DNA of 64,000 nt from Gammaproteobacteria bacterium (GTDB lineage Bacteria > Pseudomonadota > Gammaproteobacteria > Steroidobacterales > Foliamicaceae), in assembly GCA_009845905.1 (NCBI GenBank), contig VXYS01000004.1, positions 460,548 through 524,547 on the forward strand. The letters run 5' to 3'. Below the pieces are notes generated by a model. That model was not told where the DNA came from. It searched no databases and saw only the letters and a list, made by a program, of their open reading frames with translations. The first letter of the stretch is position 1. Each line of letters begins with the position of its first letter. This document shows positions 14,684 through 32,250 of this stretch, in pieces. Made by a program: the position numbers and the translations under genes.

Positions 14684-15832
14684 ATGTTGATGAACAACTG
14701 GTACGTGGCTGCCAAGAGCCATGAAGTGAATGCGGAAAAGCCATTGATCGTGCGTATGTTAGGCCAGAATTTCGTACTCTTCCGCACTCCCGAAAACCAG
14801 GCCGTCTGTCTGACCAACACCTGCTGCCATCGCGGCGGTTCGATAGGCCGGGGTGAACTGGACGGCGCCGGACGTATCGCCTGCGGCTACCACGGCTGGA
14901 AATTCAATGCGCAGGGCCAGTGCGTCGAGATTCCCGCCCTGGGGGAAGACACCAACATCCCCAGGCGCGCACGGGTGGACTCGTATCCCGTCGAAGAGCA
15001 TTTCGACTGGGTCTGGGTTTTCCTGGGCGACCTGGAAGAGGAAAAGCGCCCGGCGATCCCGACGACCGTTTTCCCCGAGTACCACGACAAGGAAAACTGG
15101 CGAGTGGTTTCGATCGAGTTTGACGCCGATGTGAACTGGGCCCGCGGGCACGAGAACTCGCTCGACAGCGCGCATCCCGCATTTGTGCATTCGCGTTTCG
15201 GGCGGCGCAGCGCGCCGAAAGTGCAGATCGTCCCGCTGGTCGAAAACGACTTCGGGGGCCATAACGCCACTCGCGAACGCGTCCCGCCCAAGCACACGCA
15301 GGTGAGCGAGGATATCGCCAGGCTGGTTTCCAGAAAACGGGGCAATACGGTGGCCTCCACCGACTCCTACCTGGCGGGTATTTCGCACCGTATCGACATC
15401 ACCCGCGAGGGCAATATCCGGCAGGTCACGGTCTCCGCGCGCACGCCCGTCGATTCGTACAACACGCGGATCTTCATGCACCAGGCGCGCAACTACCTGA
15501 TGGAAGAGGAGCACGACGAGGCCCGCCTCGACGGCATCCGGCTGGCCTTCCGCGAGGACTATGAGGCAGTCGCTTCGGTCGAGCCGAAATTCGTGCCGCG
15601 CTCCATGGCGCACCAGCTGCTGGTCGAGTCCGATCAGCTCGAAACGGCGTTCCGGAAGGTGCTGTTCGATAAAGTGAAGCAGGGCTGGGAAATCGACGTC
15701 GAGAAACTGGAGCACGAAGGGCGCTACCGGCACTTCTCGATTCCGTCGCCGGCCCGCCGGGCCGACCCGAAGAACTGGGTCCACCCGGTTGTGCCTACGA
15801 CTTTCCCCCGCCAGGATCAGGCCAGCGAATAA
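14684..15832 (+). CDS. Rieske [2Fe-2S] aromatic-ring-hydroxylating oxygenase, alpha-only (VanA/phthalate-family-like)
   Basis: Rieske motif CCHRGG...CGYHGWKF and mononuclear iron motif ENSLDSAHPAFVH. No beta subunit or reductase gene is adjacent. Confidence 0.88.
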   Translation: MLMNNWYVAAKSHEVNAEKPLIVRMLGQNFVLFRTPENQAVCLTNTCCHRGGSIGRGELDGAGRIACGYHGWKFNAQGQCVEIPALGEDTNIPRRARVDSYPVEEHFDWVWVFLGDLEEEKRPAIPTTVFPEYHDKENWRVVSIEFDADVNWARGHENSLDSAHPAFVHSRFGRRSAPKVQIVPLVENDFGGHNATRERVPPKHTQVSEDIARLVSRKRGNTVASTDSYLAGISHRIDITREGNIRQVTVSARTPVDSYNTRIFMHQARNYLMEEEHDEARLDGIRLAFREDYEAVASVEPKFVPRSMAHQLLVESDQLETAFRKVLFDKVKQGWEIDVEKLEHEGRYRHFSIPSPARRADPKNWVHPVVPTTFPRQDQASE

Positions 15833-20398: not shown

Positions 20399-20998
20399 TT
20401 AGTAAACGTTTTGTCCGCCGTCGTCGAGGACTTCCGGGCGCTTCCAGTAGGAATATTGAGGGGTCCAGTCCTGCGCGTTCATGCCGGCCAGGGCGAGGAG
20501 GCTCCAGAGCGAGCAGTAGAGGTCGCCGGGTCCGAAGACGCAGGCGTTGAAGCGGAGAACCTTGTCCCCTTCGCGCTTGTAGACGACCGCACCGGGGTAG
20601 TTGTCCTGGCCGTCCACGACCGACTGCTCTCGAATATAGGCGCCGCCGCCGTGCGAGGCGAGCCTGAAGCGCCAGCCGCGCTCGTTGGCGAACCGCCGCT
20701 GCAGTTCCGGCGGATCCTTGGACAGCAGAACGACGGACATGGCGTTTTCCAGGTGCGGGAGAAAGCCGTTGAAACCGTCGGCCCAGACGGTGCAGTAGCG
20801 ACACCCCTGGCCCATGTTGTGGATCGCCAGCAGCGTGTCCCTGCCGGCGAACAGTTCAAGCAGACTCACCTCGCCCGACCCGTCGGCGAAGCGGTAGTCG
20901 GGCACCTCGGCGCCACGGCTCTGTTTCAGAAGCGTCCCGAGTTCCCCCGTAAGCTCGAAGATCTGCTGCTGAATTTCGGCAATGCGTTTTGTGGTCAT
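20399..20998 (-). CDS. DUF899 thioredoxin-like family protein
   Basis: About 199 aa from ATG 20998 (GAAGGAA RBS). Contains GQGCRYCTVWADGFNGFLPHLE and SHGG motifs typical of DUF899. Confidence 0.7.
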   Translation of the reverse strand: MTTKRIAEIQQQIFELTGELGTLLKQSRGAEVPDYRFADGSGEVSLLELFAGRDTLLAIHNMGQGCRYCTVWADGFNGFLPHLENAMSVVLLSKDPPELQRRFANERGWRFRLASHGGGAYIREQSVVDGQDNYPGAVVYKREGDKVLRFNACVFGPGDLYCSLWSLLALAGMNAQDWTPQYSYWKRPEVLDDGGQNVY

Positions 20999-21037
20999 CC
21001 GGATTCCTTCATCGCGTGCCGCCGGCACATCGTCATA

Positions 21038-21772
21038 TTACAAACCCAGCACGCGGTAGTCGCCGTTGACGATGAGAGCTGCGGAGACGTACACACCAAG
21101 CAGCGCGCACAGGATCCAGAAGGAATTGATCGCCACGATGTAGATGTACATGTCGCGCCGGCTCAGCAGCTTGTGCCGTCTCGCCACGAAAAAGCTGACC
21201 AGGTAAGTCGAGGTCATATAGACCCATTGCCAGGACAGCATCAGCCCGATGATCCCGGCCACCAGAGCGGAAGGGTAACCGACCGTGAATGCCGCATACA
21301 GCACCAGTGTCGGAACAAGCGTGACGAAACCGTTGGCGATGTCCACGTTGAAGCCGAAGGTGCGGCGGTCGGCATACGAGTCGTCGTAATAACAGTAGGC
21401 TGCCCAGGCATCGGCCCAGACGGCCGGCGACAGGACCAGTGTCAGCCTGATCCTTGCGGCGAAGAAACCGTGCGCTGGCGAGCGTCCCGTCCTGTGCTGC
21501 ATTTCGCGCCAGTATTCGGCGCGCGATCCGATCCTGTCGCGCAGGAAAAACAGGCAGATCTCCCAGTAGCAGATCAGGAGATTGACCGAAAAGAACAGGC
21601 AGAACAGAGAGTGAAGAAAATTCACCTCCCCGCTGGTCCGCCAGCGCACCAGGATGCCGAGGAGTGTGCCGCCTGCGACGACCAGAACAACGACCAGCGC
21701 CACCGGCACCGTCAGCCCCTTGCTTCCCCGGCCCTGTTCGGATGGCGGCAGGCTGGCGCGGCTGTCGGACAT
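21038..21772 (-). CDS. EXPERA-domain membrane protein (EBP/TMEM97-like), candidate sterol Delta8-Delta7 isomerase
   Basis: 244 aa with 4-5 hydrophobic segments. WAAYCYYDDSYADRRTFGFNVDIANGFVTLVP aligns by eye with human EBP [31 protein letters not shown]. INSFW aligns with the EBP MNALW (N193/W196) motif. Confidence 0.55.
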   Translation of the reverse strand: MSDSRASLPPSEQGRGSKGLTVPVALVVVLVVAGGTLLGILVRWRTSGEVNFLHSLFCLFFSVNLLICYWEICLFFLRDRIGSRAEYWREMQHRTGRSPAHGFFAARIRLTLVLSPAVWADAWAAYCYYDDSYADRRTFGFNVDIANGFVTLVPTLVLYAAFTVGYPSALVAGIIGLMLSWQWVYMTSTYLVSFFVARRHKLLSRRDMYIYIVAINSFWILCALLGVYVSAALIVNGDYRVLGL

Positions 21773-21825
21773 GTGCCCCCCTCACACTATCCACTGTGGC
21801 GGCGAGCGCATTCTAACTTGCCGCG

Positions 21826-21856
21826 TTGCGACGAAACGGGTCGCACACGATACAAT
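21826..21856 (+). promoter_or_regulatory. candidate promoter/operator for the sterol methyltransferase gene
   Basis: TTGCGA (21826..21831), a 19-nt spacer, then TACAAT (21851..21856). Palindrome TGCGAC-N7-GTCGCA (21827..21845) overlaps the -35 element and spacer. The spacer is longer than optimal. Confidence 0.3.
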
Positions 21857-21895
21857 CCCGCTCGTTACCTGCCGGCATATCGGGAGGCGCGGGGG

Positions 21896-22915
21896 ATGGA
21901 TGCGAAAGTAGCCAAACGTTCCCTTGGGAATCTGACCCAGGGGGAAGTGAAGTCGGTGGTCGATGACTACGTCGGGCTCCACGATGCCGGCGTTGAGCGC
22001 AAGAAGGAGCATTACCGGCAGCTCGTCAACAACTACTACGACCTCGTGACCGATTTCTACGAGTGGGGTTGGGGCAAGAGCTTCCACTTCGCTCCGCGGC
22101 GACGGGGCGAGAACTTCAAGGCATCACAGATCCGGCACCAGCATTTCCTGGCCGACAAGCTCTCGCTGAAACCGGGAATGCAGATTCTCGACGCGGGATG
22201 CGGTGTGGGCGGACCCATGGGCAATCTGGCCCGCTTTAGCGGCGCGAGTTTTGTCGGCGTCAACAACAACGCCTACCAGATCGAGCGCGCGAAAGTGCAC
22301 ACCCGGGACGTTGAGGCGCTGTGCCGTTTCATCAAGAGCGACTACATGAAGATTCCCCGGAGCGACGACCACTACGATGGCGCCATAAGCATCGAAGCGA
22401 TGCCCCACGCGCCGGACAAGACCGCCGCGTACGGCGAGATCTTCCGTCTTTTGCGTCCCGGGGCCGGTTTCGCGTGCTACGAGTGGTGTGTCACCGACGT
22501 TTTCGATCCTTCGAACACGGAACATCTGCGGATCAAGGAAGGAATCATGACGGGGTCGGCGCTACCCGACATCGCCGGCACGACAGAAGTGTGCGAAGCC
22601 GTGCGCGCGGCCGGGTTCGAGCTGCTCGAAGCCCGGGACCTTGCGCCCGATTCGGATCCGGAAACGCCCTGGTACCGGGCTTTGCAGGGCCGGGACTTCA
22701 CTCTGGCGAGCATCCCGCGCACGCCCTTGGGCCGCGCCCTGACCAATCTGATCCTGCGAATTGCGGAGCCGTTGCGACTCGCTCCGCAAGGCGCGCGGGA
22801 GGTCAGCACGTTCCTGAACTGGGGCGCGGACACGCTCGTTGAAGGCGGCCGGACCGGCATCTTTACGCCGATGTACTTTTTCCTGGCCCGCAAACCCCTG
22901 TCCGGGGGAGACTGA
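21896..22915 (+). CDS. sterol C-24 methyltransferase (ERG6/SMT1 family)
   Basis: 339 aa from ATG 21896 (GGGAGG RBS 8 nt upstream). Contains YYDLVTDFYEWGWGKSFHF (SMT region I), the SAM site LDAGCGVGGP, IEAMPHAP and YEWCVTD. The first 495 codons of track ORF 20411.. are antisense to other genes and are rejected. Confidence 0.85.
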   Translation: MDAKVAKRSLGNLTQGEVKSVVDDYVGLHDAGVERKKEHYRQLVNNYYDLVTDFYEWGWGKSFHFAPRRRGENFKASQIRHQHFLADKLSLKPGMQILDAGCGVGGPMGNLARFSGASFVGVNNNAYQIERAKVHTRDVEALCRFIKSDYMKIPRSDDHYDGAISIEAMPHAPDKTAAYGEIFRLLRPGAGFACYEWCVTDVFDPSNTEHLRIKEGIMTGSALPDIAGTTEVCEAVRAAGFELLEARDLAPDSDPETPWYRALQGRDFTLASIPRTPLGRALTNLILRIAEPLRLAPQGAREVSTFLNWGADTLVEGGRTGIFTPMYFFLARKPLSGGD

Positions 22916-22917
22916 CC

Positions 22918-25900
22918 TCACGCGGCGCGCGGCCTGATCCGAACCGCGTCCGGCTCCTTCTCCTTCGAAGCGGCGGTCAGTTCGAGTCGGGTCCGGCGGC
23001 GTTGCTCGTACAGGCCGAGCGCGCGCAGCGGGAAATACTGTCGGTACAGGACGTAGTCCAGCAGCGCCGTGCGGAAGAAGACGCCGGCCATGTCCTGTTT
23101 CGGCCAGCCGCCATCCGCTTCCTGGGCGTTGAGCAGAAAACGTGCGCCGCGCGCAATCGCGGTCCAGTTGGACTCATCTGCCTCCAGCAGCGCTAGCAGG
23201 GCCCAGGCGGTCTGGATGACCTGGCTTTCCTCGTGCGCAACATAGCGGCCCGTCAGGCAACCGCTGTGGTGTTCGCCCCATCCGCCGTCATCGCGCTGCC
23301 GGTCGAGCAGCCAGCGGCAGGCCAGGCGCAGCGCCGGATCGCTCGGTCCCGCCCCGGCGGCAACCAGGCCCCTGATGCCGAACAGGGTCCCGTAGATGTA
23401 CTGAACGCCCCACACGCCACGCCATGAGCCATCGCGCTCCTGGGTCTTGCGCAGCCAGGCGGCGCCCCTTGCGATGGCCCGCGCCGCCGGCGGATCAAGT
23501 GCCTGCGGGAACCGGCGCCCGCAGGCGGCCAGCGCCTCCAGACAGGACCCCGTGCACTCGACGTAGGAATTTTCGGTCATCGATTCGCCGAACATCTCGG
23601 CGGGGTTCAGCCACTCGAGACCGATCCGCGAGCGTCGTGCTTCATAGCTGCCGAAGCCGCCATCGCGGTTCTGGCTTCGCAACATGAACCGGACCGCCTC
23701 ATTCAGCGCCGCCTTGTCCGCGTCATCACCTCCTGCGGCGAGTATCCCGAGCACGGCTTCGGCGGTGCAGTCGCTCACCGGCCAGCCATGCCAGCCGCCG
23801 GGAAAACACCAGCCTCCCTTCGGGTCGGCGCGAAAGGCCTCGCGATACCCGTCGAAGCTGGTGCGGATCTGTTGTGAGCGCAGGAAGCCGGCGCCCTTGC
23901 GGACAGCGTCGTTAATTTCATCGGACCCGGGCGCGTCCGCGAGCGCCTGCACGGAAAAGGCGGTGTCCCAGGTGCTGCTTCTGGCTCCGGTGACCCGCGC
24001 GCCGAGCTCCTCGTCTTCCCAGAACCACCCATCGAGCCCGGCGAGCGCCGTACGGCAGTCGGCATCGTCCCGATCGTGCAGCCACAAGGCCAGAATGTTC
24101 AGAAAACCGCTGACCGGCGAGATGCTGCTGTGACTCGTGGTCTGCAACTCCCACTGGATCTGGCGGACCAGCTTCTCAAGGCAGCGGCGGCGCAGGCGCT
24201 TGCTGTGGATTCGTTCATACAGGCGCGCCAACGCGTATCCGGCTCGCAACCACACGCTCGGTCGCACAAACAGGTCGGCGTCGCGCAGGCGGTTGCGGGC
24301 GGAAGAAAAATCAAGGCGGTCAAACTCTTTTCCGAACAATTCTTCGCGCAGGGATTCGATCACGGGCGTGACCGGCGCCTGGAACCGATGCGCGTAGATG
24401 GACGCCATCGCCATGTAAATGAGCCGCGTATGGCAGTACCAGTTCGACGGATGCAACGGCAACCCGCGCGGCAGCTTCCACAGTTCCGGAAGAATTGCGT
24501 TCACCCCGCGCCAGTCATACAGATTGAGCAGCGCCAGCCAGAATTTCCCCCAGCTCGGGACCGCAAGCACGTCCTCTTCGGCGAGGAAACGGCCGGCCGG
24601 TGCGACAAGCGGGTCGTCAGGCTCCACGCCGAGCAGTCTCGACGCGACATAAACCAGCACGGTCACGAACAGGTGGGGCGGCGAGTGCTCGTGCAATCCC
24701 CACGCGCCGTCCGCCAGGCGGGTGCATTCGAACGAGCGCAGGATGCGCCGCCGCCGGCCGGAGTCTATCGGCTCACCGAGAATGTGCTGCAGCAGCACGT
24801 ATTGCGCCGTGAGCATGGGGCACCAGACCATCTCGCCTTCCCAGGCGCCGTCCTCGCCCTGAAGGTCCAGAAGGCGCGCCGCTGCCCTGCGCAATGCAGG
24901 CTCCGCGTCGGGCGACGCGGATTCGCCCGTCCGCGGGGCGCCGGCTCGGCCGTCGTTCGAGGACATGGAAGCGAGAAGCGCGCGCGACAACGCCCTGCGG
25001 GCCTCCCGGTCCTTGCCGCCGCCTCCGTCCCTGGCCTCCTTCAGCTTGCGAATGCCACGCAAGAACCAGCGGGCGCGGGCAACGAGCGGGAAAACGATGT
25101 AGCGTGCCCGCCGCCAGGCCAACTGTCTGAATGATGAACGAACCACGCCCGCAACGGCCCGGATCACCGTAGCTAGCGTTGCGAGCACAAGGTGGGTCAT
25201 CGAGGTTTCCTCGCAGGCGAGCAGCCGCATGGTCCGGTCGCGAACGACGCCATGCGCCCGCCAGTTGCGGTAGATCGCGCGCCGGAGCGCTGCCGCTTCG
25301 AGTCGATGATCGGCAAAGACCTCGTACAGCCCCATGGCGAGCAGCTCCGGGGCGCGGGTCGCCCTGAATCGCCGGACGGCGAAATTCCTGAAGCTCCCGC
25401 CTTCCGCCAGCGCGGCGGCGTCGCCGAAACCGAGCGTCATGCCCACCGCCGTCATCGGATGATAGTGCCCGGCCGCATCGCCGATCAGCACCCGCCTCGA
25501 CGTGCCGTACGAGACGCGCGGCCTGAGTTCATTGGCCGCCGCGTGGAATTTGCCCGACTTCAGCGCCGAGAGATAAGCGGGTCGCAATGCTTCCGGCAGG
25601 ACCCGAGCGTAAGACTCGGCCAGCAGGCCGGTCCTGTCGCGCGAGGTCCATTGCTCAAGCGGCACATCGACAACGATCCTGACGCAATGCTCGCCCAGCG
25701 GATATCCGAGAATCGGACCCGGGCCGCCGAGCATCACGTATCCGTAACCGGCCGGCTGCAGACTCACGCCTTCAAGGGTCACGCCCACCATCCGCGAGCA
25801 GGCCTTGCGCCGCATCGGCAGGCCCAGCGACCGCCGCACGGCGGAAGACCGGCCGTCGGCGCCGACAATCCTGTCGGCGGCGAGGTGTTCGCTGGAGCCG

Positions 25901-26394
25901 CCGCGGGTGAAGACCACGCCGTCGTCTTCGACCTGCCTTACCCGCGCATTGACAAGAAAGTCGATGCCCGGCTCATTGCGGACGGCTTCATGCAGACGCG
26001 CCACGAGGACCTCATGGTCGCAGGCTATACCCCGCCCCCCGCCGGGGTACGGGAGCACGATCGGTTCCGAACCGTCCTCCGGAAACACCACGAAGCCCTG
26101 ACCCTCGGTGCTGCGCAGCGGTGGATCGAGGCGGATGCCGGCATCGCGCAACATGCGCACGGCCAGCGGATGCAACCACTCGCCGGCCAGCCGCGTGGCC
26201 GCCCTGGGGTTCGCCTCAAGCAACGCCACGCGCGCGCCCTTGCGCGCGTGAGCGAGCGCGCAATAGCTGCCGACAGGCCCCGCGCCTACGATGATTACGT
26301 CGTAACGCGGGGAGGCGGCGCTCAACTGAATACGCTCGCTTGCGAGCGGCGGCGATAGCGGACCCGGCACGGTACCGTGGGGCCCGTCACCCAA
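22918..26394 (-). CDS. fusion protein: squalene monooxygenase (epoxidase) N-terminal domain + oxidosqualene cyclase C-terminal domain
   Basis: Single uninterrupted 1158-codon ORF. N-terminal part: YDVIIVGAGPVG, LAGEWLHP, IGDAAGHYHPMTAVGMT (squalene-epoxidase-like). C-terminal part: GWPVSDCTAEAV (OSC catalytic Asp motif), YVECTGSCLEAL and QW-type repeats RDGGFGSY, DDGGWGEH, ADGGWPKQ. There is no ATG at the 5' end, so the start is TTG 26394, GTG 26370 or TTG 26325. Confidence 0.85.
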   Translation of the reverse strand: MGDGPHGTVPGPLSPPLASERIQLSAASPRYDVIIVGAGPVGSYCALAHARKGARVALLEANPRAATRLAGEWLHPLAVRMLRDAGIRLDPPLRSTEGQGFVVFPEDGSEPIVLPYPGGGRGIACDHEVLVARLHEAVRNEPGIDFLVNARVRQVEDDGVVFTRGGSSEHLAADRIVGADGRSSAVRRSLGLPMRRKACSRMVGVTLEGVSLQPAGYGYVMLGGPGPILGYPLGEHCVRIVVDVPLEQWTSRDRTGLLAESYARVLPEALRPAYLSALKSGKFHAAANELRPRVSYGTSRRVLIGDAAGHYHPMTAVGMTLGFGDAAALAEGGSFRNFAVRRFRATRAPELLAMGLYEVFADHRLEAAALRRAIYRNWRAHGVVRDRTMRLLACEETSMTHLVLATLATVIRAVAGVVRSSFRQLAWRRARYIVFPLVARARWFLRGIRKLKEARDGGGGKDREARRALSRALLASMSSNDGRAGAPRTGESASPDAEPALRRAAARLLDLQGEDGAWEGEMVWCPMLTAQYVLLQHILGEPIDSGRRRRILRSFECTRLADGAWGLHEHSPPHLFVTVLVYVASRLLGVEPDDPLVAPAGRFLAEEDVLAVPSWGKFWLALLNLYDWRGVNAILPELWKLPRGLPLHPSNWYCHTRLIYMAMASIYAHRFQAPVTPVIESLREELFGKEFDRLDFSSARNRLRDADLFVRPSVWLRAGYALARLYERIHSKRLRRRCLEKLVRQIQWELQTTSHSSISPVSGFLNILALWLHDRDDADCRTALAGLDGWFWEDEELGARVTGARSSTWDTAFSVQALADAPGSDEINDAVRKGAGFLRSQQIRTSFDGYREAFRADPKGGWCFPGGWHGWPVSDCTAEAVLGILAAGGDDADKAALNEAVRFMLRSQNRDGGFGSYEARRSRIGLEWLNPAEMFGESMTENSYVECTGSCLEALAACGRRFPQALDPPAARAIARGAAWLRKTQERDGSWRGVWGVQYIYGTLFGIRGLVAAGAGPSDPALRLACRWLLDRQRDDGGWGEHHSGCLTGRYVAHEESQVIQTAWALLALLEADESNWTAIARGARFLLNAQEADGGWPKQDMAGVFFRTALLDYVLYRQYFPLRALGLYEQRRRTRLELTAASKEKEPDAVRIRPRAA

Positions 26395-27731
26395 CTGCCG
26401 TAATTCGGCGCGGGAAAATCCGCAACGGGATCAAAATCGAAGCGGTCCAGCAGCACCGCCCAGATCGCCTTCAGTTGCAGCATGGCGAATTTCTCCCCCA
26501 TGCAACGGTGCTTGCCCCCGCCGAAGCCGATCAGCGTGTAGAGGTGCTGCTTGTTCTCGCTGCGCGGCGGAGCGAACCGTTCGGGATCGAATCGCTCGGG
26601 ATCGGCGAACAGGCCCGGCAAACGGTGCGAGACCGCCGGAGACACGACGGCCAGGGCGCCGGCGGGCACCGTGTGGCCCGCATACTGCAGAGGCCGGAGC
26701 ACCTTGCGGATCAGCAGTATCAGCGGCGGGTGCAGCCGCTCGCATTCGCGCACCGTGTATTCCAGCGCCACCTGCCGCTTCAGTCCGTCGAGGCTCATGG
26801 CCCCCGCCTCACCGTAAATCTCGCGCATCTCGGCGCGAATCCGCGCCACGCAGGCGGGATCGCGGAACATCTCAAGACCCATCCAGCTTGCGAGCACCGC
26901 GCTGGTGTGCTGGCCGGCGAACAGGACCGTCAGCAGTATCCCGGTCACCTCGTCGTCGCTCAGGGTCCGGCCGTCCTTGTAGCGGGACTGCATCAGCGCC
27001 TGCATGAAATCTTCCGGCGCGGCGCCCGAACCCCGCCGGCCCTCCATGATTCGGACAAGAATCCCGGCTATCCTGCGGCGCGCGCGGTCGCGACGCCGAT
27101 GCGCCGGGATCGGCAGCCTGGGCAGGAAGAAGCCGATCAGGTTTATGCCCTCCTCGAGGTCGTGGTACGCCTGGGCGAATCCCGAATCCACCTGATCCCG
27201 TACCTCCTGACCCAGCAGGCAGCGGCTGGCGATGTTCACGGTAAGCCGGTTCATCGCCGCCGGCAGGTCCAGCGTTCCTTCCTCTCCGAGCGCGTCGGCA
27301 AACCGGGCGGCCTCCTCATACATGATTTGCGCGTACCTGCGCATGGACGCATCGCGCAGCGCCGGATACAGGAACCCCAACTGCTCCGCCATGATCTCGG
27401 GGGCCACGTCGTAGGCCACGCCGCGCCCGAAGATAGGCACCGTGAACTGATAGACGGCACGGGCGTCAAGCTGGTCCTCGGGCGCGCGGAAGTAGCAGTC
27501 GTGGGCTTCCGGCCCGGTGAACAGCACGAATTCGCGGGTCCCCAGCCGGAAACGGACCAGTTCGCCGTGCTCACGCCAGCCGCGATCGAGCATCGCCACC
27601 GGGTCCCTCTGGAACTCGGGCAGATGACCGAGCAACGGCCAACCGCCGGAGAGTTCGGGAATCGGCTTGCCCGGCGGCGCCGCGGGCCGCGCCGAACGCA
27701 GGGTGGCTGCACTGTCGGTATGGTTCGGCAC
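26322..27731 (-). CDS. cyp51: cytochrome P450 sterol 14-alpha-demethylase (CYP51)
   Basis: Heme loop FGGGKHRCMGEKFA. Also PELSGGWPLLGHLPEFQRDP, VYQFTVPIFGRGVAYD and FAGQHTS, which match the CYP51 pattern I recall from Mycobacterium CYP51. Start GTG 27731 has a GAGGA RBS 5 nt upstream. Track ORF start 27794 would overlap the reductase gene. Confidence 0.85.
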   Translation of the reverse strand: MPNHTDSAATLRSARPAAPPGKPIPELSGGWPLLGHLPEFQRDPVAMLDRGWREHGELVRFRLGTREFVLFTGPEAHDCYFRAPEDQLDARAVYQFTVPIFGRGVAYDVAPEIMAEQLGFLYPALRDASMRRYAQIMYEEAARFADALGEEGTLDLPAAMNRLTVNIASRCLLGQEVRDQVDSGFAQAYHDLEEGINLIGFFLPRLPIPAHRRRDRARRRIAGILVRIMEGRRGSGAAPEDFMQALMQSRYKDGRTLSDDEVTGILLTVLFAGQHTSAVLASWMGLEMFRDPACVARIRAEMREIYGEAGAMSLDGLKRQVALEYTVRECERLHPPLILLIRKVLRPLQYAGHTVPAGALAVVSPAVSHRLPGLFADPERFDPERFAPPRSENKQHLYTLIGFGGGKHRCMGEKFAMLQLKAIWAVLLDRFDFDPVADFPAPNYGSWVTGPTVPCRVRYRRRSQASVFS

Positions 27732-27739
27732 GTCTGTCC

Positions 27740-28837
27740 TCAATACACGAACGGGACCATCGAATACGGCACTCGCTCCCTGTAGCGCCCCCACAGTTCG
27801 CCGTACTTGGCGCGGCAGCGCCGCTCATCGCGGCGCGAGCGATGCCACAGCAGCCCCGCAAGCCAGGCCGGCAACACATACGGCGCCCAGGATGCAAAAC
27901 CGGTGGTGAGCGCAAACGCGAGGTACATACAGATCTCGCCGCTGTAGTTGAGATGCCGCCCGATTCCCCAGAACCCGGACACCAGCAGGCGCCCGTCGAG
28001 GGACTCGGCGGGCCGGCCCCAGATTCTGATTGCAGGGTTGCGCTTGAAGCGATGCTTCTGCGCGTTGGCGCCCCGGAACACCCAGAAGCCGAAGGCATAC
28101 AGCAGCACGATGCCGGCTGCGGCGAGGGGGCCCAGCGGCGGACCGGATGCGTCAACCAGCCACCAGCCGACGATGCAGTAGAAGAAGGGCACAAACACGT
28201 AGTCGCCCCACACCAGCATCCATCCGAAGCGCTCGCTGATGATGTCCCAGGTGTGGACCATGCCCCTTTCGAACTGGAAGTAATTGAGCACGTACACCCA
28301 CGTCAGGACCTGGTAGAGGGCCATCGCCAGCGTCAGATAGCCGTAGGTTTCGTATTGCACTACGGCGAACGACGTATTGAACAACGCCAGCCCGATGAGC
28401 GAGGGGCGGTAGCTGAACATCTTGAGGTCCACCCCGAGCAGGGCAGGATTGAGTTCCGCACCGAAGAAGAAACCCCGCCAGAACCCCGGCGATTCGGCAG
28501 GCTTCCGCGCGCTTCGCCAGTACAGCCAGCCGGAAAACGCGAATGCGAACACGTTCGCCGCCACGAAGAGCGCGAAAAAGTGCGTATACAGCAACGACAG
28601 TGAGAACGCGCCGGAGACCTGGGCGATGCCTGCCGCAAGGACGGTGAGCAGCAAAAGCGCCAGACCGTTGATCTTGTAGGTGATTGACTTGCCGCCGAGA
28701 TCCGGCCCCCTGATCCGGCGACCCGGCACGAGTATCGATCCCAGAAACAGTGCGCCGATAAAGACGGCGATCATTACCGCCGCCTGGAGCAGCAGCGCGC
28801 CCGAAAGCGCAAACGCAGTCGCCGGCAGCTCAGGCAT
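27740..28837 (-). CDS. ERG4/ERG24-family sterol reductase (probable C-14 reductase)
   Basis: 365 aa, multi-TM. Family-defining C-terminus LLVSGFWGIGRHLNYSGEI...RDERRCRAKYGELWGRYRERVPYSMVPFVY. Confidence 0.85.
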   Translation of the reverse strand: MPELPATAFALSGALLLQAAVMIAVFIGALFLGSILVPGRRIRGPDLGGKSITYKINGLALLLLTVLAAGIAQVSGAFSLSLLYTHFFALFVAANVFAFAFSGWLYWRSARKPAESPGFWRGFFFGAELNPALLGVDLKMFSYRPSLIGLALFNTSFAVVQYETYGYLTLAMALYQVLTWVYVLNYFQFERGMVHTWDIISERFGWMLVWGDYVFVPFFYCIVGWWLVDASGPPLGPLAAAGIVLLYAFGFWVFRGANAQKHRFKRNPAIRIWGRPAESLDGRLLVSGFWGIGRHLNYSGEICMYLAFALTTGFASWAPYVLPAWLAGLLWHRSRRDERRCRAKYGELWGRYRERVPYSMVPFVY

Positions 28838-29960
28838 CGGCGCCGCCGTCCGCGGTCGTCATCCCGGGCGCGGGCATCGCCGTGCCGTTCTCCCTGGCCA
28901 GGTACTCCTGCCACTTGCGCACGGTCACGTTCTGGAAAGCCCGCACCGCCGGGTTGAACTCCAGGGGGCGGGCGTTGAAGTGCCGCTCGTAACCCTCCTG
29001 TTCGGCTTCGAGCGCAAATCCGTCCTGGGAAAGCAGCGGACCGATGAGCACACGGTTGGAGATCTTGAGGACCGTGGTCATTGCAAGCCTGGGGAAGCGG
29101 ATCGGCAGCAACGGAACCTTCAGGGACTTGAAGTAGAACAGGAAGAAGGCCCGGCTGGTGCGTTCGTCGACGGGCAGCACGAAACACCAGTGCTTTATCG
29201 CGTCGTCGGTGTTCGACCACTGGTAGGGATACTGATAGCAGAGCTTCATCGAATTGGTATCGATCCGCTCGCGATCGACGAACATTCCGGAAAAACGCCC
29301 GCGGCCGACGCTGGTGTCGTAGGCCACGTGCACGTCGTCGCCGACCGTCTCGCAGCGCGTGAGCACGGCGCCGTCGAAGGGGCGATAGCGGCGGTGCAGC
29401 CAGGCGTGAGTGAAATCGCTGACGTTGTCGATCACCATCGAGTGGTGCGCCGACCAGGTGAAACTCAGCGGCACGCAGGCCCAGCGGCCCTTGCCCTCCA
29501 GCTCGGGAATATCGGGAATCCGGCGCGATTGAGCCCGTTCCGGGTTCCCTGGGAACAGCCAGATCAGGCCGTAGCGGACCTTTACCGGATAGGTCCTGAG
29601 CGCGACATTCGGCATGCTTCCCCCAAGCATCTCGTGCGCGGTCTCGGCAAGCCGTCCGTCCGGGTCGTATTTCCAGCCGTGGTAGGCGCACACCAGCCGG
29701 CAGCCTTCCACCTGGCCCAGCGACAGCTTGAGCTGGCGATGGGCGCAGCGGTTGTCCATGGCGTGAAACGAACCGTCCTCGGCCCGGAACAGCGCGATCG
29801 AACGCTTCCAGAAAATCACCTCGACCACGCTCCCGGGCTTGATTTTGCGCACTTCCTCGACCGCGTACCAGTAGTCCGGGTCCATGCCCGCCGCGCGCAC
29901 CTTCTGGCGCAGGTTGACGGCCTCCTCGAAGCCCGGCGGTCCTGCCGTCACCGTGTTCAT
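28830..29960 (-). CDS. sdmA: Rieske-type oxygenase, SdmA-like (bacterial sterol C-4 demethylation)
   Basis: Rieske motif CAHRQ...CAYHGWKY and iron motif DNVSDFTHAWLH. Assigned as SdmA by its position between an SdmB-like reductase and the sterol reductase/CYP51/OSC genes. Confidence 0.7.
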   Translation of the reverse strand: MNTVTAGPPGFEEAVNLRQKVRAAGMDPDYWYAVEEVRKIKPGSVVEVIFWKRSIALFRAEDGSFHAMDNRCAHRQLKLSLGQVEGCRLVCAYHGWKYDPDGRLAETAHEMLGGSMPNVALRTYPVKVRYGLIWLFPGNPERAQSRRIPDIPELEGKGRWACVPLSFTWSAHHSMVIDNVSDFTHAWLHRRYRPFDGAVLTRCETVGDDVHVAYDTSVGRGRFSGMFVDRERIDTNSMKLCYQYPYQWSNTDDAIKHWCFVLPVDERTSRAFFLFYFKSLKVPLLPIRFPRLAMTTVLKISNRVLIGPLLSQDGFALEAEQEGYERHFNARPLEFNPAVRAFQNVTVRKWQEYLARENGTAMPAPGMTTADGGADA

Positions 29961-31069
29961 GATGCGCCCCCATCGGCAGTTACCTGCGTACTCCGGTCCG
30001 GCACGGCGTTTTCCTCGTGTACCGCACCGTTCGCGCGCGGGCGTTTGGCCTGCGGATTGGTGATCGCCTTGCGCTCGTGATAGTGAAACGCGTACGCCTC
30101 ATGCACGGCGTCGCGGATGCGGGTCGGCCGGTAGCCGAGTTCGCTTTTCGCCTTGCCGAGATTGGCGTGACGGCGCTTTTTCAGAAGGCGGATGGCGCCG
30201 GGCGTGAAACGCTGGGGAAAGTCGGGGTGCACGCGGCTCAGGTAGAAGCTCGCCGCCTCCGAGAAGACATACATCAGGTTGGCCGGAATCCGCCGGCGCG
30301 GACGCGGGATGCCCGTAACCTCCTCGTAGAGATCAAGCATGCCGGAGATGGTCTTGTATTCGCTGCTGAAGATGTACTTCTCGCCCGGGCGTCCGTTGCG
30401 CATGCACAGCAGGTGACCTTCGACGATGTCGCGCGCCGCCACGAACTCGAACCCGCCGTCCACGTAGGCATGGAGCTTGCCGTCGGTGAAGTCGCACAGG
30501 GTCCGGCCCAGGCGCGACGGGAAAAAGTCCGCGCCGCCCACGACCGCACAGCAGGTTGCGACAACGACGTCCTGCCCTGCCGACGCCGCGCGCCAGCACT
30601 CGTGCTCGACGAGCATCTTGCTGCGCTCGTACGGCATCGTGCGCTCCATGGGGTAGAACTGCATGGTCTCGTCGCTTGGAGCGGACGGATCGTCGAGATC
30701 GTAGCCAACCGCGCTGAACGAGCCCGTGACCACTACCCGCCCGGCTTCGTACTCCCGCGCCGCCTGCAGCACGTTGCGGGTGCCCAGCACGTTGCACTCA
30801 TACAACTCGCGGCGATGCGCGCGAGTGCCGTCGATGGTGGAGACTTTCGCGGCGACGTGATAGACGCCCTGGCAACCCTCGATCGCGCGCCGGGTGGCGT
30901 TCAGGTCCCGGATATCGCCGTAAGCGCGTTCAACATCGAGGCCTTCCAGGCCCTCGTTGTTGTCCTCGTGCCTCAGCAGCACACGGATGCGAACGCCGTC
31001 GTCGAGCAGGCGGCGCACAAGATTGGCGCCCACGTGTCCGGCCGCGCCGGTTACGAATACGGGATTCAT
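29957..31069 (-). CDS. sdmB: NAD(P)-dependent epimerase/dehydratase-family reductase, SdmB-like (bacterial sterol C-4 demethylation)
   Basis: N-terminus MNPVFVTGAAGHVGANLVRRLL, an extended-SDR Rossmann fold. ATGA overlap with the Rieske gene. Assignment rests on operon context. Confidence 0.7.
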   Translation of the reverse strand: MNPVFVTGAAGHVGANLVRRLLDDGVRIRVLLRHEDNNEGLEGLDVERAYGDIRDLNATRRAIEGCQGVYHVAAKVSTIDGTRAHRRELYECNVLGTRNVLQAAREYEAGRVVVTGSFSAVGYDLDDPSAPSDETMQFYPMERTMPYERSKMLVEHECWRAASAGQDVVVATCCAVVGGADFFPSRLGRTLCDFTDGKLHAYVDGGFEFVAARDIVEGHLLCMRNGRPGEKYIFSSEYKTISGMLDLYEEVTGIPRPRRRIPANLMYVFSEAASFYLSRVHPDFPQRFTPGAIRLLKKRRHANLGKAKSELGYRPTRIRDAVHEAYAFHYHERKAITNPQAKRPRANGAVHEENAVPDRSTQVTADGGAS

Positions 31070-31197: not shown

Positions 31198-32250
31198 TTA
31201 TCTTTCCGGTTTCGGGACGTGGATCTTCGTTTGCTGAACCGGCGCGGGCCGCGGCGCCGGCCTTGGAGCGGGCGCGGCGGGTCGTGGCGCAGGGGCAGAC
31301 GGCCGCGAAGTTGGCATAGTCGGCCGTGAAGCTGGCGCAGTCGGTCGTGAAGTTGGCGCTGTCGGTCGTGCAGCCACCCTAGCGGGGCGAGAGGTTGGTG
31401 CAGCGCGTCGTGCTGCCGGTGCGGCGGGTCGCGTGTTCGGCGCCTGTCGCCTCGTATCCGCGACTCTCCGCGTTTTCGGCGCAACCGTCCGGGTGCGGGA
31501 ATTATCGGCCGTTCTGGGTACGGCCGGCCTGGTTCGCACAGCCGGCTTCGTTCGCGCGACCGGCTTCGTGCCGGTCACGGTGGAGGGCTGCCGCCGCGCA
31601 TCGCGGGAACGACTCAGGCGGCGTGCATCGCGGGCGTAGCCGCGGGGCGGCGCCGCGAGAGGCCGCCGGCGGTAGGTAGGCGCATAGATCACCGTGGTCG
31701 GATTCACAGCCTGCCTTTGTGGCGAATAAGTCCCGGCGCCGATTTCGTCGTCGTAAACGACGGGGTCGGGATATTCTTCCGCTTCGCTCAGCGCAACGGA
31801 GAAGTCTCCCGAATTGCCCTCCGCTTCTTCGGCGGCCTCGCGGGCGGAAGTCAGCTCGTCGCGAAGCGCCGCTATCTCGTCGCGCAGCGTCCTGGCTTCC
31901 TCGGCGCTGCGTTCCGCCTCGGAAGCGGCGTCCTCGCTCAACTGCTGCATTTCAAGCCGAATAGCGGAGATTTCGTCGCGCAGAACGGAAGCGTCCCGGG
32001 AAGCACGCCTGACTTCCTCGTTCGCAGCGTCGCGCACGGACCGCATATCCTCGCGCAAGGCGGCAATATCGTCGCGGAGATAACGGGCCTCGTCAAGTGC
32101 GCTTTCAAACTCGGAAACCACCGCCGCGCGCCGGTCGTCCGCAGCGGCGCGAGCTTCGGCCTTGTCCGCATCGTCCGAACCGGCGCACCCCGTCGCGACC
32201 AACACCCAGGCGGCAAGCGCACAGACCTCGTGTCGGATTGATGTATTCAT
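31198..32250 (-). CDS. lipoprotein with a coiled-coil region and a basic Pro/Arg/Thr/Ala-rich tandem-repeat tail
   Basis: Signal peptide plus lipobox (AWVLVATGC). Repeated LRD(D/E)I(A/S)A(L/I)R heptad-like segments. C-terminal RPTAPTSRPTAPASRPTMPTSRPSAPAPRPAAPAPRPAPRPAP. No family recognised. Confidence 0.6.
   Translation of the reverse strand: MNTSIRHEVCALAAWVLVATGCAGSDDADKAEARAAADDRRAAVVSEFESALDEARYLRDDIAALREDMRSVRDAANEEVRRASRDASVLRDEISAIRLEMQQLSEDAASEAERSAEEARTLRDEIAALRDELTSAREAAEEAEGNSGDFSVALSEAEEYPDPVVYDDEIGAGTYSPQRQAVNPTTVIYAPTYRRRPLAAPPRGYARDARRLSRSRDARRQPSTVTGTKPVARTKPAVRTRPAVPRTADNSRTRTVAPKTRRVADTRRQAPNTRPAAPAARRAAPTSRPARVAARPTAPTSRPTAPASRPTMPTSRPSAPAPRPAAPAPRPAPRPAPVQQTKIHVPKPER
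31297..31380. repeat. 21-bp tandem repeat, about 3.5 copies, inside the lipoprotein gene
   Basis: Units are AGACGGCCGCGAAGTTGGCAT / AGTCGGCCGTGAAGCTGGCGC / AGTCGGTCGTGAAGTTGGCGC / TGTCGGTCGTGCAGCCACCCT. They encode the RPT(A/M)P(T/A)S heptapeptide repeats. Confidence 0.85.

Follow-up and report, generated by a model that had tools for sequence, protein, structure and literature searches.

A fused squalene epoxidase-oxidosqualene cyclase gene of the MsbE type in a sterol operon from a sponge-symbiont-type gammaproteobacterium

We analysed a 64,000-nucleotide stretch of contig VXYS01000004.1 (assembly GCA_009845905.1; hereafter the window), whose source is a sponge-symbiont-type gammaproteobacterium, and found that the squalene epoxidase and the oxidosqualene cyclase of its sterol operon are encoded in one uninterrupted frame on the minus strand. 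From the architecture, conservation, catalytic motifs and operon context of this gene, we infer that it is probably translated as a single bifunctional, membrane-associated enzyme (1135 amino acids (aa), predicted mass ~125 kDa), which would convert squalene into a protosterol, probably lanosterol, for the CYP51, ERG24, SdmAB and methyltransferase steps. The earlier note on this DNA, which did not give the strand, had correctly recognised that one open reading frame (ORF) carries both enzymes. Its author, working without databases, was not aware of a description of this architecture; the fusion is in fact already known, having been described in 2020 as MsbE (PMC7074536), and is abundant in public genomes.

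The maximal ORF occupies 22918..26394 on the minus strand and comprises 1158 codons from TTG, without stops or frameshifts. This length, given in the earlier note for the ORF, is more than that of the gene, which has 1135 codons, probably beginning at TTG 26325, with the first 23 ORF codons outside the protein. This TTG and the TGA stop of the upstream CYP51 gene share the tetranucleotide TTGA, the closest homologues are 1135 aa long with their N-terminus (MS.ASPRYDV) at the same position, and a public gene call (ENA ERZ23491782 scaffold_1, 1.17 Mb) gives the identical 1135-aa product with a 4-nt overlap with a 469-aa P450. We also scanned GTDB with one genome per species, which yielded 417 relatives; the best 80 of these are the 80 loci of all locus counts below. 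An NTGA start/stop overlap with an in-frame ATG, GTG or TTG was present at or near the same site in 77 of the 80, mostly 7-8 codons ahead of the YDV motif, as is the TTG of the window. A start at TTG 26394 was dropped on these grounds. Residue numbers below refer to the 1135-aa protein, which equals ORF numbering minus 23, unless ORF numbering is stated. The gene and its parts are as follows.

22918..26325, minus strand: fused squalene epoxidase-oxidosqualene cyclase gene (MsbE type), 1135 aa plus stop, start TTG 26325
26326..26394, minus strand: 5' 23 codons of the maximal ORF, inside the CYP51 3' end, probably untranslated as part of the fusion
25216..26307, minus strand: squalene epoxidase catalytic (FAD) domain, aa 7-370, from Pfam SE and FAD_binding_3, the human SQLE match and motifs
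24979..25215, minus strand: helical tail of the epoxidase half, aa 371-449, from AlphaFold2 (AF2) secondary structure, hydropathy, hydrophobic moment and a cross-phyla alignment
24904..24978, minus strand: flexible linker, aa 450-474, LLASMSSNDGRAGAPRTGESASPDA, pLDDT 29-51, holding the Met454 codon (24964..24966)
22981..24903, minus strand: oxidosqualene cyclase domain, aa 475-1115, from Pfam SQHop_cyclase_N and SQHop_cyclase_C, TIGR01787, TIGR03463 and human LSS (1w6k)

The domain map of the earlier note (epoxidase, hydrophobic and amphipathic helices, low-complexity linker, cyclase) proved accurate. The peptides it quoted, YDVIIVGAGPVG, IGDAAGHYHPMTAVGMT and the linker running from KEARDGGGGKDREARRALS to SPDAEPA, are all present in the ORF, and its linker interval, 24880..25047, corresponds to ORF aa 450-505.

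In profile searches, both halves match their families far beyond chance. In ORF numbering, Pfam FAD_binding_3 was matched at aa 31-330 (1.3e-21, 77.6 bits against a cutoff of 22), SE (PF08491) at aa 177-417 (5e-22, 78.7 bits against a gathering cutoff of 20.1), SQHop_cyclase_N at aa 502-795 (5e-54, 183.8 bits) and SQHop_cyclase_C at aa 806-1130 (3e-60, 204.3 bits). With the SE domain above threshold and the FAD motifs kept, the N-terminal half is assigned to the squalene epoxidase family. It contains GAGPVG (GxGxxG, aa 14-19), GADG (aa 155-158) and GDAAGHYHPMTAVGMT (aa 282-297), the last fitting the pattern GDAxxHxHPxxxxGMT; these motifs are invariant or nearly so across 26-79 orthologues, and human SQLE (6c6n) aligns with aa 9-303 (E=3e-24).

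By its scores, the C-terminal half belongs to the two-domain alpha/alpha-toroid class II triterpene cyclases: it reached 509.6 bits with TIGR01787, a general squalene/oxidosqualene cyclase model with a cutoff of 322.7, and merely 286 bits with the hopene cyclase model, and human LSS (1w6k) aligns with aa 485-1109 (E=2.4e-134). Its catalytic acid motif, VSDCTAE (aa 850-856, nt 23758..23778), is of the VxDCTAE type and not the DxDD of squalene-hopene cyclases, and equals the human D455/C456 site. Equivalents of human H232 (in WYCH, aa 629-632), Y503 (in SYE, aa 893-895) and C533 (in VECT, aa 922-925) are kept as well, and the catalytic residues are invariant or nearly so across the same range of orthologues.

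The fusion recurs far beyond the window. A search over 5.8 billion proteins returned 579 relatives, and the best 120 clusters (90%-identity clusters), which we inspected, were all 1089-1186 aa long, 68-92% identical to the query and equipped with both SE and cyclase Pfam domains; some hold dozens of member sequences. Among the best 80 of the 417 GTDB species genomes, query residues ~1-1135 were matched in one stretch, and all 80 loci carry an uninterrupted ORF of at least 1100 aa with the DCT motif, many of the records being complete chromosomes. Third-codon-position bias is 1.63 and 1.64 in the two halves, and by this equal excess both are under purifying selection. The exact fusion protein is present on three separate public contigs.

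As a rule, cultured sterol-producing bacteria encode the epoxidase and the cyclase in separate neighbouring genes, and when 1.84 billion 50%-identity representatives were searched exhaustively with HMMER (764 hits at E<1e-30), unfused cyclases (~650 aa) and unfused epoxidases (~420-480 aa) did turn up at 40-56% identity. Such genes lend some colour to the idea that an assembly error, frameshift or chimera joined two neighbours into one continuous ORF. That explanation is nevertheless vanishingly improbable, because all 80 independent species-level genomes, closed chromosomes among them, have the ORF intact; the fusion is likewise found in every one of the best 120 clusters and, letter for letter, on the three public contigs, and its linker can be aligned across phyla with indels of merely 1-4 aa. 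Judged by these comparisons, the fusion is genuine. The worry over an artefact in the earlier note, which had proposed a long-read check, is thereby answered in kind by assemblies of other species and not by reads of this assembly.

The junction between the halves was examined in an AF2 model of the fusion, built from a 79-sequence alignment (mean pLDDT 74.5, pTM 0.51); because of this pTM, only local features are used. After the FAD domain, helices are predicted at aa 376-396, 401-434 and 438-449, followed by predicted disorder at aa 450-474, and the first cyclase helix starts at aa 475. The segment at aa 376-396 is the sole part of the protein with membrane-like hydropathy (mean >1.6, from aa 376). 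By hydropathy and hydrophobic moment, the helix at aa 401-434 is long and amphipathic, with 10 K/R plus Trp, Tyr and Phe, a composition typical of an interfacial amphipathic helix, and the helical tail as a whole (aa 371-449) is likely to act as a membrane-surface anchor. At 110 aa, the junction (aa 371-480) has the same length in 67 of 78 orthologues, the overall range being 106-111, and mean identity in the linker region (aa 426-472) is 40%; the tether is therefore conserved in length and not in sequence. The connection is thus probably a helical, membrane-facing tail followed by a short tether.

On this evidence, the reaction sequence could run as follows. The N-terminal FAD monooxygenase half would epoxidise squalene to 2,3-oxidosqualene. 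The ~80 residues of helices, one hydrophobic and one cationic-amphipathic, would probably attach the protein to the membrane surface in the manner of stand-alone squalene epoxidases, and a disordered tether of ~25 residues and near-fixed length would lead to the C-terminal oxidosqualene cyclase. The cyclase would protonate the epoxide through the Asp of VSDCTAE and release a protosterol, most likely lanosterol.

Several observations weigh against a single squalene-to-lanosterol enzyme, beginning with the identity of the product. TIGR03463 (osq_cycl) is the best-ranked NCBIfam model at 746.6 bits, under its curated cutoff of 851, a shortfall that concerns the strict model cutoff and not the fold. 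Of the lanosterol synthase triad T381/C449/V453, two positions are atypical, with Ala781 in place of T381 and His846 in place of C449, the latter being the cycloartenol-synthase state. Because of these two residues, parkeol, cycloartenol or mixed products come into consideration, and it is conceivable, if unlikely, that the fusion is real and yields cycloartenol, parkeol or another protosterol or triterpenol, leading to a different sterol series. The genes for CYP51, ERG24 and SdmAB would fit either series. The equivalent of human V453 is Val850, nearly invariant in the family, and in the bacteria tested so far position 453 alone correlated fully with the product, V453 with lanosterol and I453 with cycloartenol (PMC4919349); MsbE was named a lanosterol synthase from the same residue (PMC7074536). 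Lanosterol is therefore the best guess and the most likely product predicted from these residues.

The linker supplies a further point against a single enzyme. Its third-position bias is only 0.66 (78 orthologues), a relaxed constraint that would also suit a protein cleaved in two. The ORF might give rise to two polypeptides, by initiation at Met454 or by proteolysis in the linker, with the fusion serving as mere transcriptional or translational packaging. The predicted disorder of aa 450-474, the faster evolution of the linker relative to the domains and the retention of the Met454 codon as ATG in 57 of 78 orthologues would all suit such an arrangement. The earlier note had suggested separate translation of the cyclase from this codon, which it placed at codon 476; the Met is ORF codon 477, that is Met454 (nt 24964..24966). 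In 20 of the 78 orthologues, however, the codon is ATC, ATA, ATT, CTG or TTA, no start codon, and in one it is GTG; no Shine-Dalgarno-like 4-mer lies within 20 nt upstream of it in any of the 78, and the nearest GGGAGG in the window is ~36 nt away. Because the codon varies and such a 4-mer is absent, a conserved internal start is unlikely. The true start, in contrast, is a conserved NTGA coupling site, and frame and junction length are kept over at least 80 species, which would be needless if co-transcription sufficed. Post-translational cleavage in the tether may occur as far as the sequence data go, and the two-polypeptide explanation overall is improbable; a single chain is preferred.

The remaining points against this single-chain enzyme are of several kinds. 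In the whole-fusion AF2 model, domain packing is unreliable, and neither a tunnel nor active sites on a common face can be read from it. The 64-kb window has no squalene synthase gene; one lies within 8 kb of the fusion in only 4 of the 80 loci (L005, L006, L041 and L065), so the genes that supply squalene lie elsewhere in these genomes. Finally, no enzymology, proteomics or transcript data for the protein or any orthologue were found in the searchable literature.

Human SQLE and LSS are monotopic membrane proteins that draw their lipid substrates from the bilayer. The earlier note had proposed that the fusion passes a labile intermediate directly to the cyclase, and "labile" is too strong a word for 2,3-oxidosqualene. 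Because both enzymes are monotopic and bilayer-fed, the realistic gains would lie in co-localisation on one membrane patch, 1:1 stoichiometry, less over-epoxidation and joint inheritance when the cassette is transferred, and not in shielding an unstable intermediate; these advantages, like the membrane topology, we infer from the layout of the protein. Substrate channelling may plausibly occur. A more ambitious version is tentative at best: the tether and the cationic helices would bring the exit of the epoxidase and the entrance of the cyclase together on the same patch of membrane, squalene would become protosterol without release of oxidosqualene, suppressing dioxidosqualene, and the fused gene would be a portable core that lets a five-to-seven-gene cassette work right after horizontal transfer to sponge symbionts of unrelated lineages, with fusion recurrent among the first three sterol enzymes.

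Names among the protein-search matches pointed at first to Nitrospira as the origin, but the closest genomes are metagenome-assembled genomes (MAGs) of sponge-associated Gammaproteobacteria at 88-92% identity, with SB0673_bin_2 at 92%. Within the best 80, the same fused gene was found at 64-74% identity in Alphaproteobacteria, Nitrospirota (~70%), Binatia, Acidimicrobiia, Thermodesulfobacteriota, Acidobacteriota (Bryobacterales and Vicinamibacterales), Opitutales, Nitrospinaceae, Candidatus Porisulfidus, Poriferihabitaceae and Rariloculus, and almost all carriers are sponge-symbiont MAGs. That identity hardly varies from phylum to phylum agrees with the horizontal transfer described for such clusters (PMC9531527), and the sterol cassette is apparently common to sponge-associated bacteria of many phyla by this route. 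In the 50%-identity set, the sponge clade is represented by P0045; beyond it, at least eight more full-length fused epoxidase-cyclase representatives (P0121-P0126, P0133 and P0136) were found at 39-51% identity. In a rough neighbour-joining tree of the cyclase domain, the majority of fused forms grouped among bacterial cyclases as one clade, with a few unfused bacterial cyclases (~650 aa) as close neighbours, and P0133 and P0136 lay apart from it. A single fusion event, or a small number of them, with later spread would be the simplest reading.

The fusion is the last cistron of a tightly overlapping minus-strand operon in the order sdmB-like, sdmA-like, ERG24, CYP51, fusion, and a methyltransferase gene converges on it from the other side. 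The genes around it are the following.

29957..31069, minus strand: short-chain dehydrogenase/reductase, 3-beta-hydroxysteroid dehydrogenase-like and SdmB-like, NAD(P)-dependent, first gene of the operon (Pfam Epimerase and 3Beta_HSD; syntenic in 68 of 80; msbA equivalent)
28830..29960, minus strand: Rieske oxygenase, SdmA-like, candidate for C-4 demethylation (Pfam Rieske and VanA_C; syntenic in 70 of 80; msbB equivalent, PMC7074536)
27740..28837, minus strand: ERG4/ERG24-family sterol C-14 reductase, 365 aa (Pfam ERG4_ERG24, 1.6e-73; syntenic in 68 of 80)
26322..27731, minus strand: CYP51-type P450, sterol 14-demethylase candidate, 469 aa (Pfam p450 and gene call; syntenic in 76 of 80; stop overlapping the fusion start)
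21896..22915, plus strand: sterol C-24 methyltransferase, 339 aa (Pfam Sterol_MT_C; ATG with GGGAGG upstream; 339-aa gene call; convergent with the fusion)

Across the 80 loci, each upstream sterol gene is thus retained 68-76 times and a neighbouring methyltransferase 61 times. The CYP51 of the window has no ferredoxin domain, and the cluster is flanked by unrelated metabolic genes. A promoter and terminator scan of the cluster gave 0 promoter-like sites, and its terminator-like sites look like chance matches. An 834-aa ORF at 20411..22915 (plus strand) was considered as a second fusion, of an unknown domain with the methyltransferase, and rejected as a spurious upstream extension: its upstream part is the antisense of a 244-aa gene and a DUF899 gene in GC-rich DNA, and the last 339 codons alone are real. 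About 9 of the 80 loci (L017, L027, L028, L029, L035, L037, L060, L074 and L080), including Acidimicrobiales and Ca. Rariloculaceae, carry the fusion without sdmB-sdmA-ERG24-CYP51 upstream, so the fusion also occurs outside the standard cassette. A 350-aa ORF just upstream of the operon (31198..32250, minus strand) has weak coiled-coil-type Pfam matches only, and its conservation is limited to the nearest relatives (67-85% identity in L001, L003 and L024). A second Rieske oxygenase, with VanA_C and a region resembling KshA_C (the C-terminal domain of 3-ketosteroid 9-alpha-hydroxylase), lies ~7 kb from the sterol cluster at 14684..15832 on the plus strand.

The closest described system is msb, a locus that Mohanty et al. 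(2020, Mar Drugs 18:124; PMC7074536) reported from a symbiotic gammaproteobacterium of the sponge Melophlus sarasinorum, with msbA for an NAD(P) oxidoreductase, msbB for a Rieske oxygenase, msbC for a sterol reductase, msbD for a lanosterol demethylase and msbF for a sterol methyltransferase. Compared by its published description, MsbE likewise combines, in one ORF, a squalene epoxidase at the N-terminus with a sterol cyclase at the C-terminus, has Val at the lanosterol-diagnostic position and retains the FAD residues. The order oxidoreductase, Rieske, sterol reductase, lanosterol demethylase and fusion, plus an S-adenosylmethionine-dependent sterol methyltransferase, also agrees, and by gene content msbA-F is the same cluster with the same functional reading as that of the window. 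The msb cluster was linked to sarasinoside saponins, whereas no glycosyltransferase cluster is evident near the cluster of the window.

Kelly et al. (2022, Microbiome; PMC9531527) reported "clusters of steroid genes" (ERG24-CYP51-LSS) that average 5910 +/- 74 bp, occur in sponge symbionts from ~10 phyla and show evidence of horizontal transfer. As here, the methyltransferase is on the opposite strand at the 3' end, and the same phyla were recovered in our GTDB scan; their gene, however, is annotated as LSS/ERG7 only. The ERG24-CYP51-fusion stretch of the window (22918..28837) measures 5920 bp, and because the lengths match, the fused gene is presumably what they label "LSS". Brown et al. (2023; PMC10070321) trimmed "fused SMO/OSC homologs" (squalene monooxygenase/oxidosqualene cyclase) and tested methyltransferases, not the fusion. 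The fusion goes unmentioned in the main text of Nitrospira genome papers, triterpenoid-cyclase evolution papers, Hoshino and Gaucher 2021 and Santana-Molina 2020. The earlier note had asked whether such fusions are common and characterised: they are common by domain search, and no paper on expression, activity or structure of the fused protein was found, most subscription journals lying outside the search.

The stand-alone bacterial enzymes of Methylococcus capsulatus and Gemmata obscuriglobus belong to the same families and share the catalytic motifs, but are two polypeptides, which in the window are joined by ~80 aa of helices and a length-conserved tether of ~25 aa. Human LSS (1W6K) and SQLE (6C6N) agree in their active-site residues; they are separate enzymes of the endoplasmic reticulum, and their N-terminal regions are absent from the window protein. 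A natural fusion is also known in another step of a bacterial sterol pathway, MCCYP51FX of M. capsulatus (PMC7947880), which joins CYP51 to ferredoxin, an enzyme to its redox partner, and not two consecutive pathway enzymes as in the window.

Other fusions among early sterol enzymes were seen in the 50%-identity set. Fifteen representatives join epoxidase and squalene synthase (P0213, P0215, P0218, P0225, P0233, P0238, P0245, P0253, P0255, P0256, P0259, P0260, P0266, P0268 and P0269), all from metagenome and MAG contigs. Most are ~1080-1200 aa long, with an N-terminal epoxidase, a C-terminal squalene/phytoene synthase and between them a single cyclase-type alpha/alpha toroid-like region with a weak SQHop_cyclase_C match and QW-like motifs; P0260 (924 aa) and P0266 (808 aa) are without this middle part. 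P0194 (1022 aa), the sole representative of its type, shows a third combination within the first three sterol enzymes, with a squalene synthase-like region at aa 22-337 and an oxidosqualene cyclase at aa 364-1017.

Beyond the methyltransferase, one more gene of the window may belong to the sterol cluster as an accessory.

21038..21772, minus strand: 244-aa multi-pass membrane protein with an EBP-like fold by AF2 and Foldseek, candidate sterol 8,7-isomerase

This gene adjoins the sterol cluster in 29 of the 80 loci. Pfam gave nothing for the protein, even at E<=5. A database search returned 431 relatives, and of the 120 listed none carries a Pfam domain, the few named ones being called "hypothetical protein". 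Its AF2 model (pLDDT 83.9, pTM 0.81) matched in Foldseek only human EBP, 8w0r (TM-scores 0.58/0.66) and 6oht, in the range 0.5-0.66, with the next match at ~0.2. A PDB profile search with the family found nothing, and sequence similarity to EBP was not detectable. Invariant residues of the family include W70, E71, D121, D130, D135, R136, N142, D144, W181, Q182 and Y185. On the basis of the modelled fold, the protein is a candidate for an unannotated bacterial sterol isomerase family.

Poor solubility of one bacterial lanosterol synthase in Escherichia coli has been a problem (PMC12146001), and a natural single-chain squalene-to-lanosterol enzyme would serve sterol and triterpenoid engineering in bacteria. 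The fusion would also be a clean system for asking whether two monotopic membrane enzymes channel their substrate when placed close together. For the organisms themselves, the cassette bears on how sterol synthesis spread between bacterial phyla (PMC9531527), and on whether bacteria, not sponges, make the side-chain-alkylated sterols used as "sponge" biomarkers (PMC10070321).

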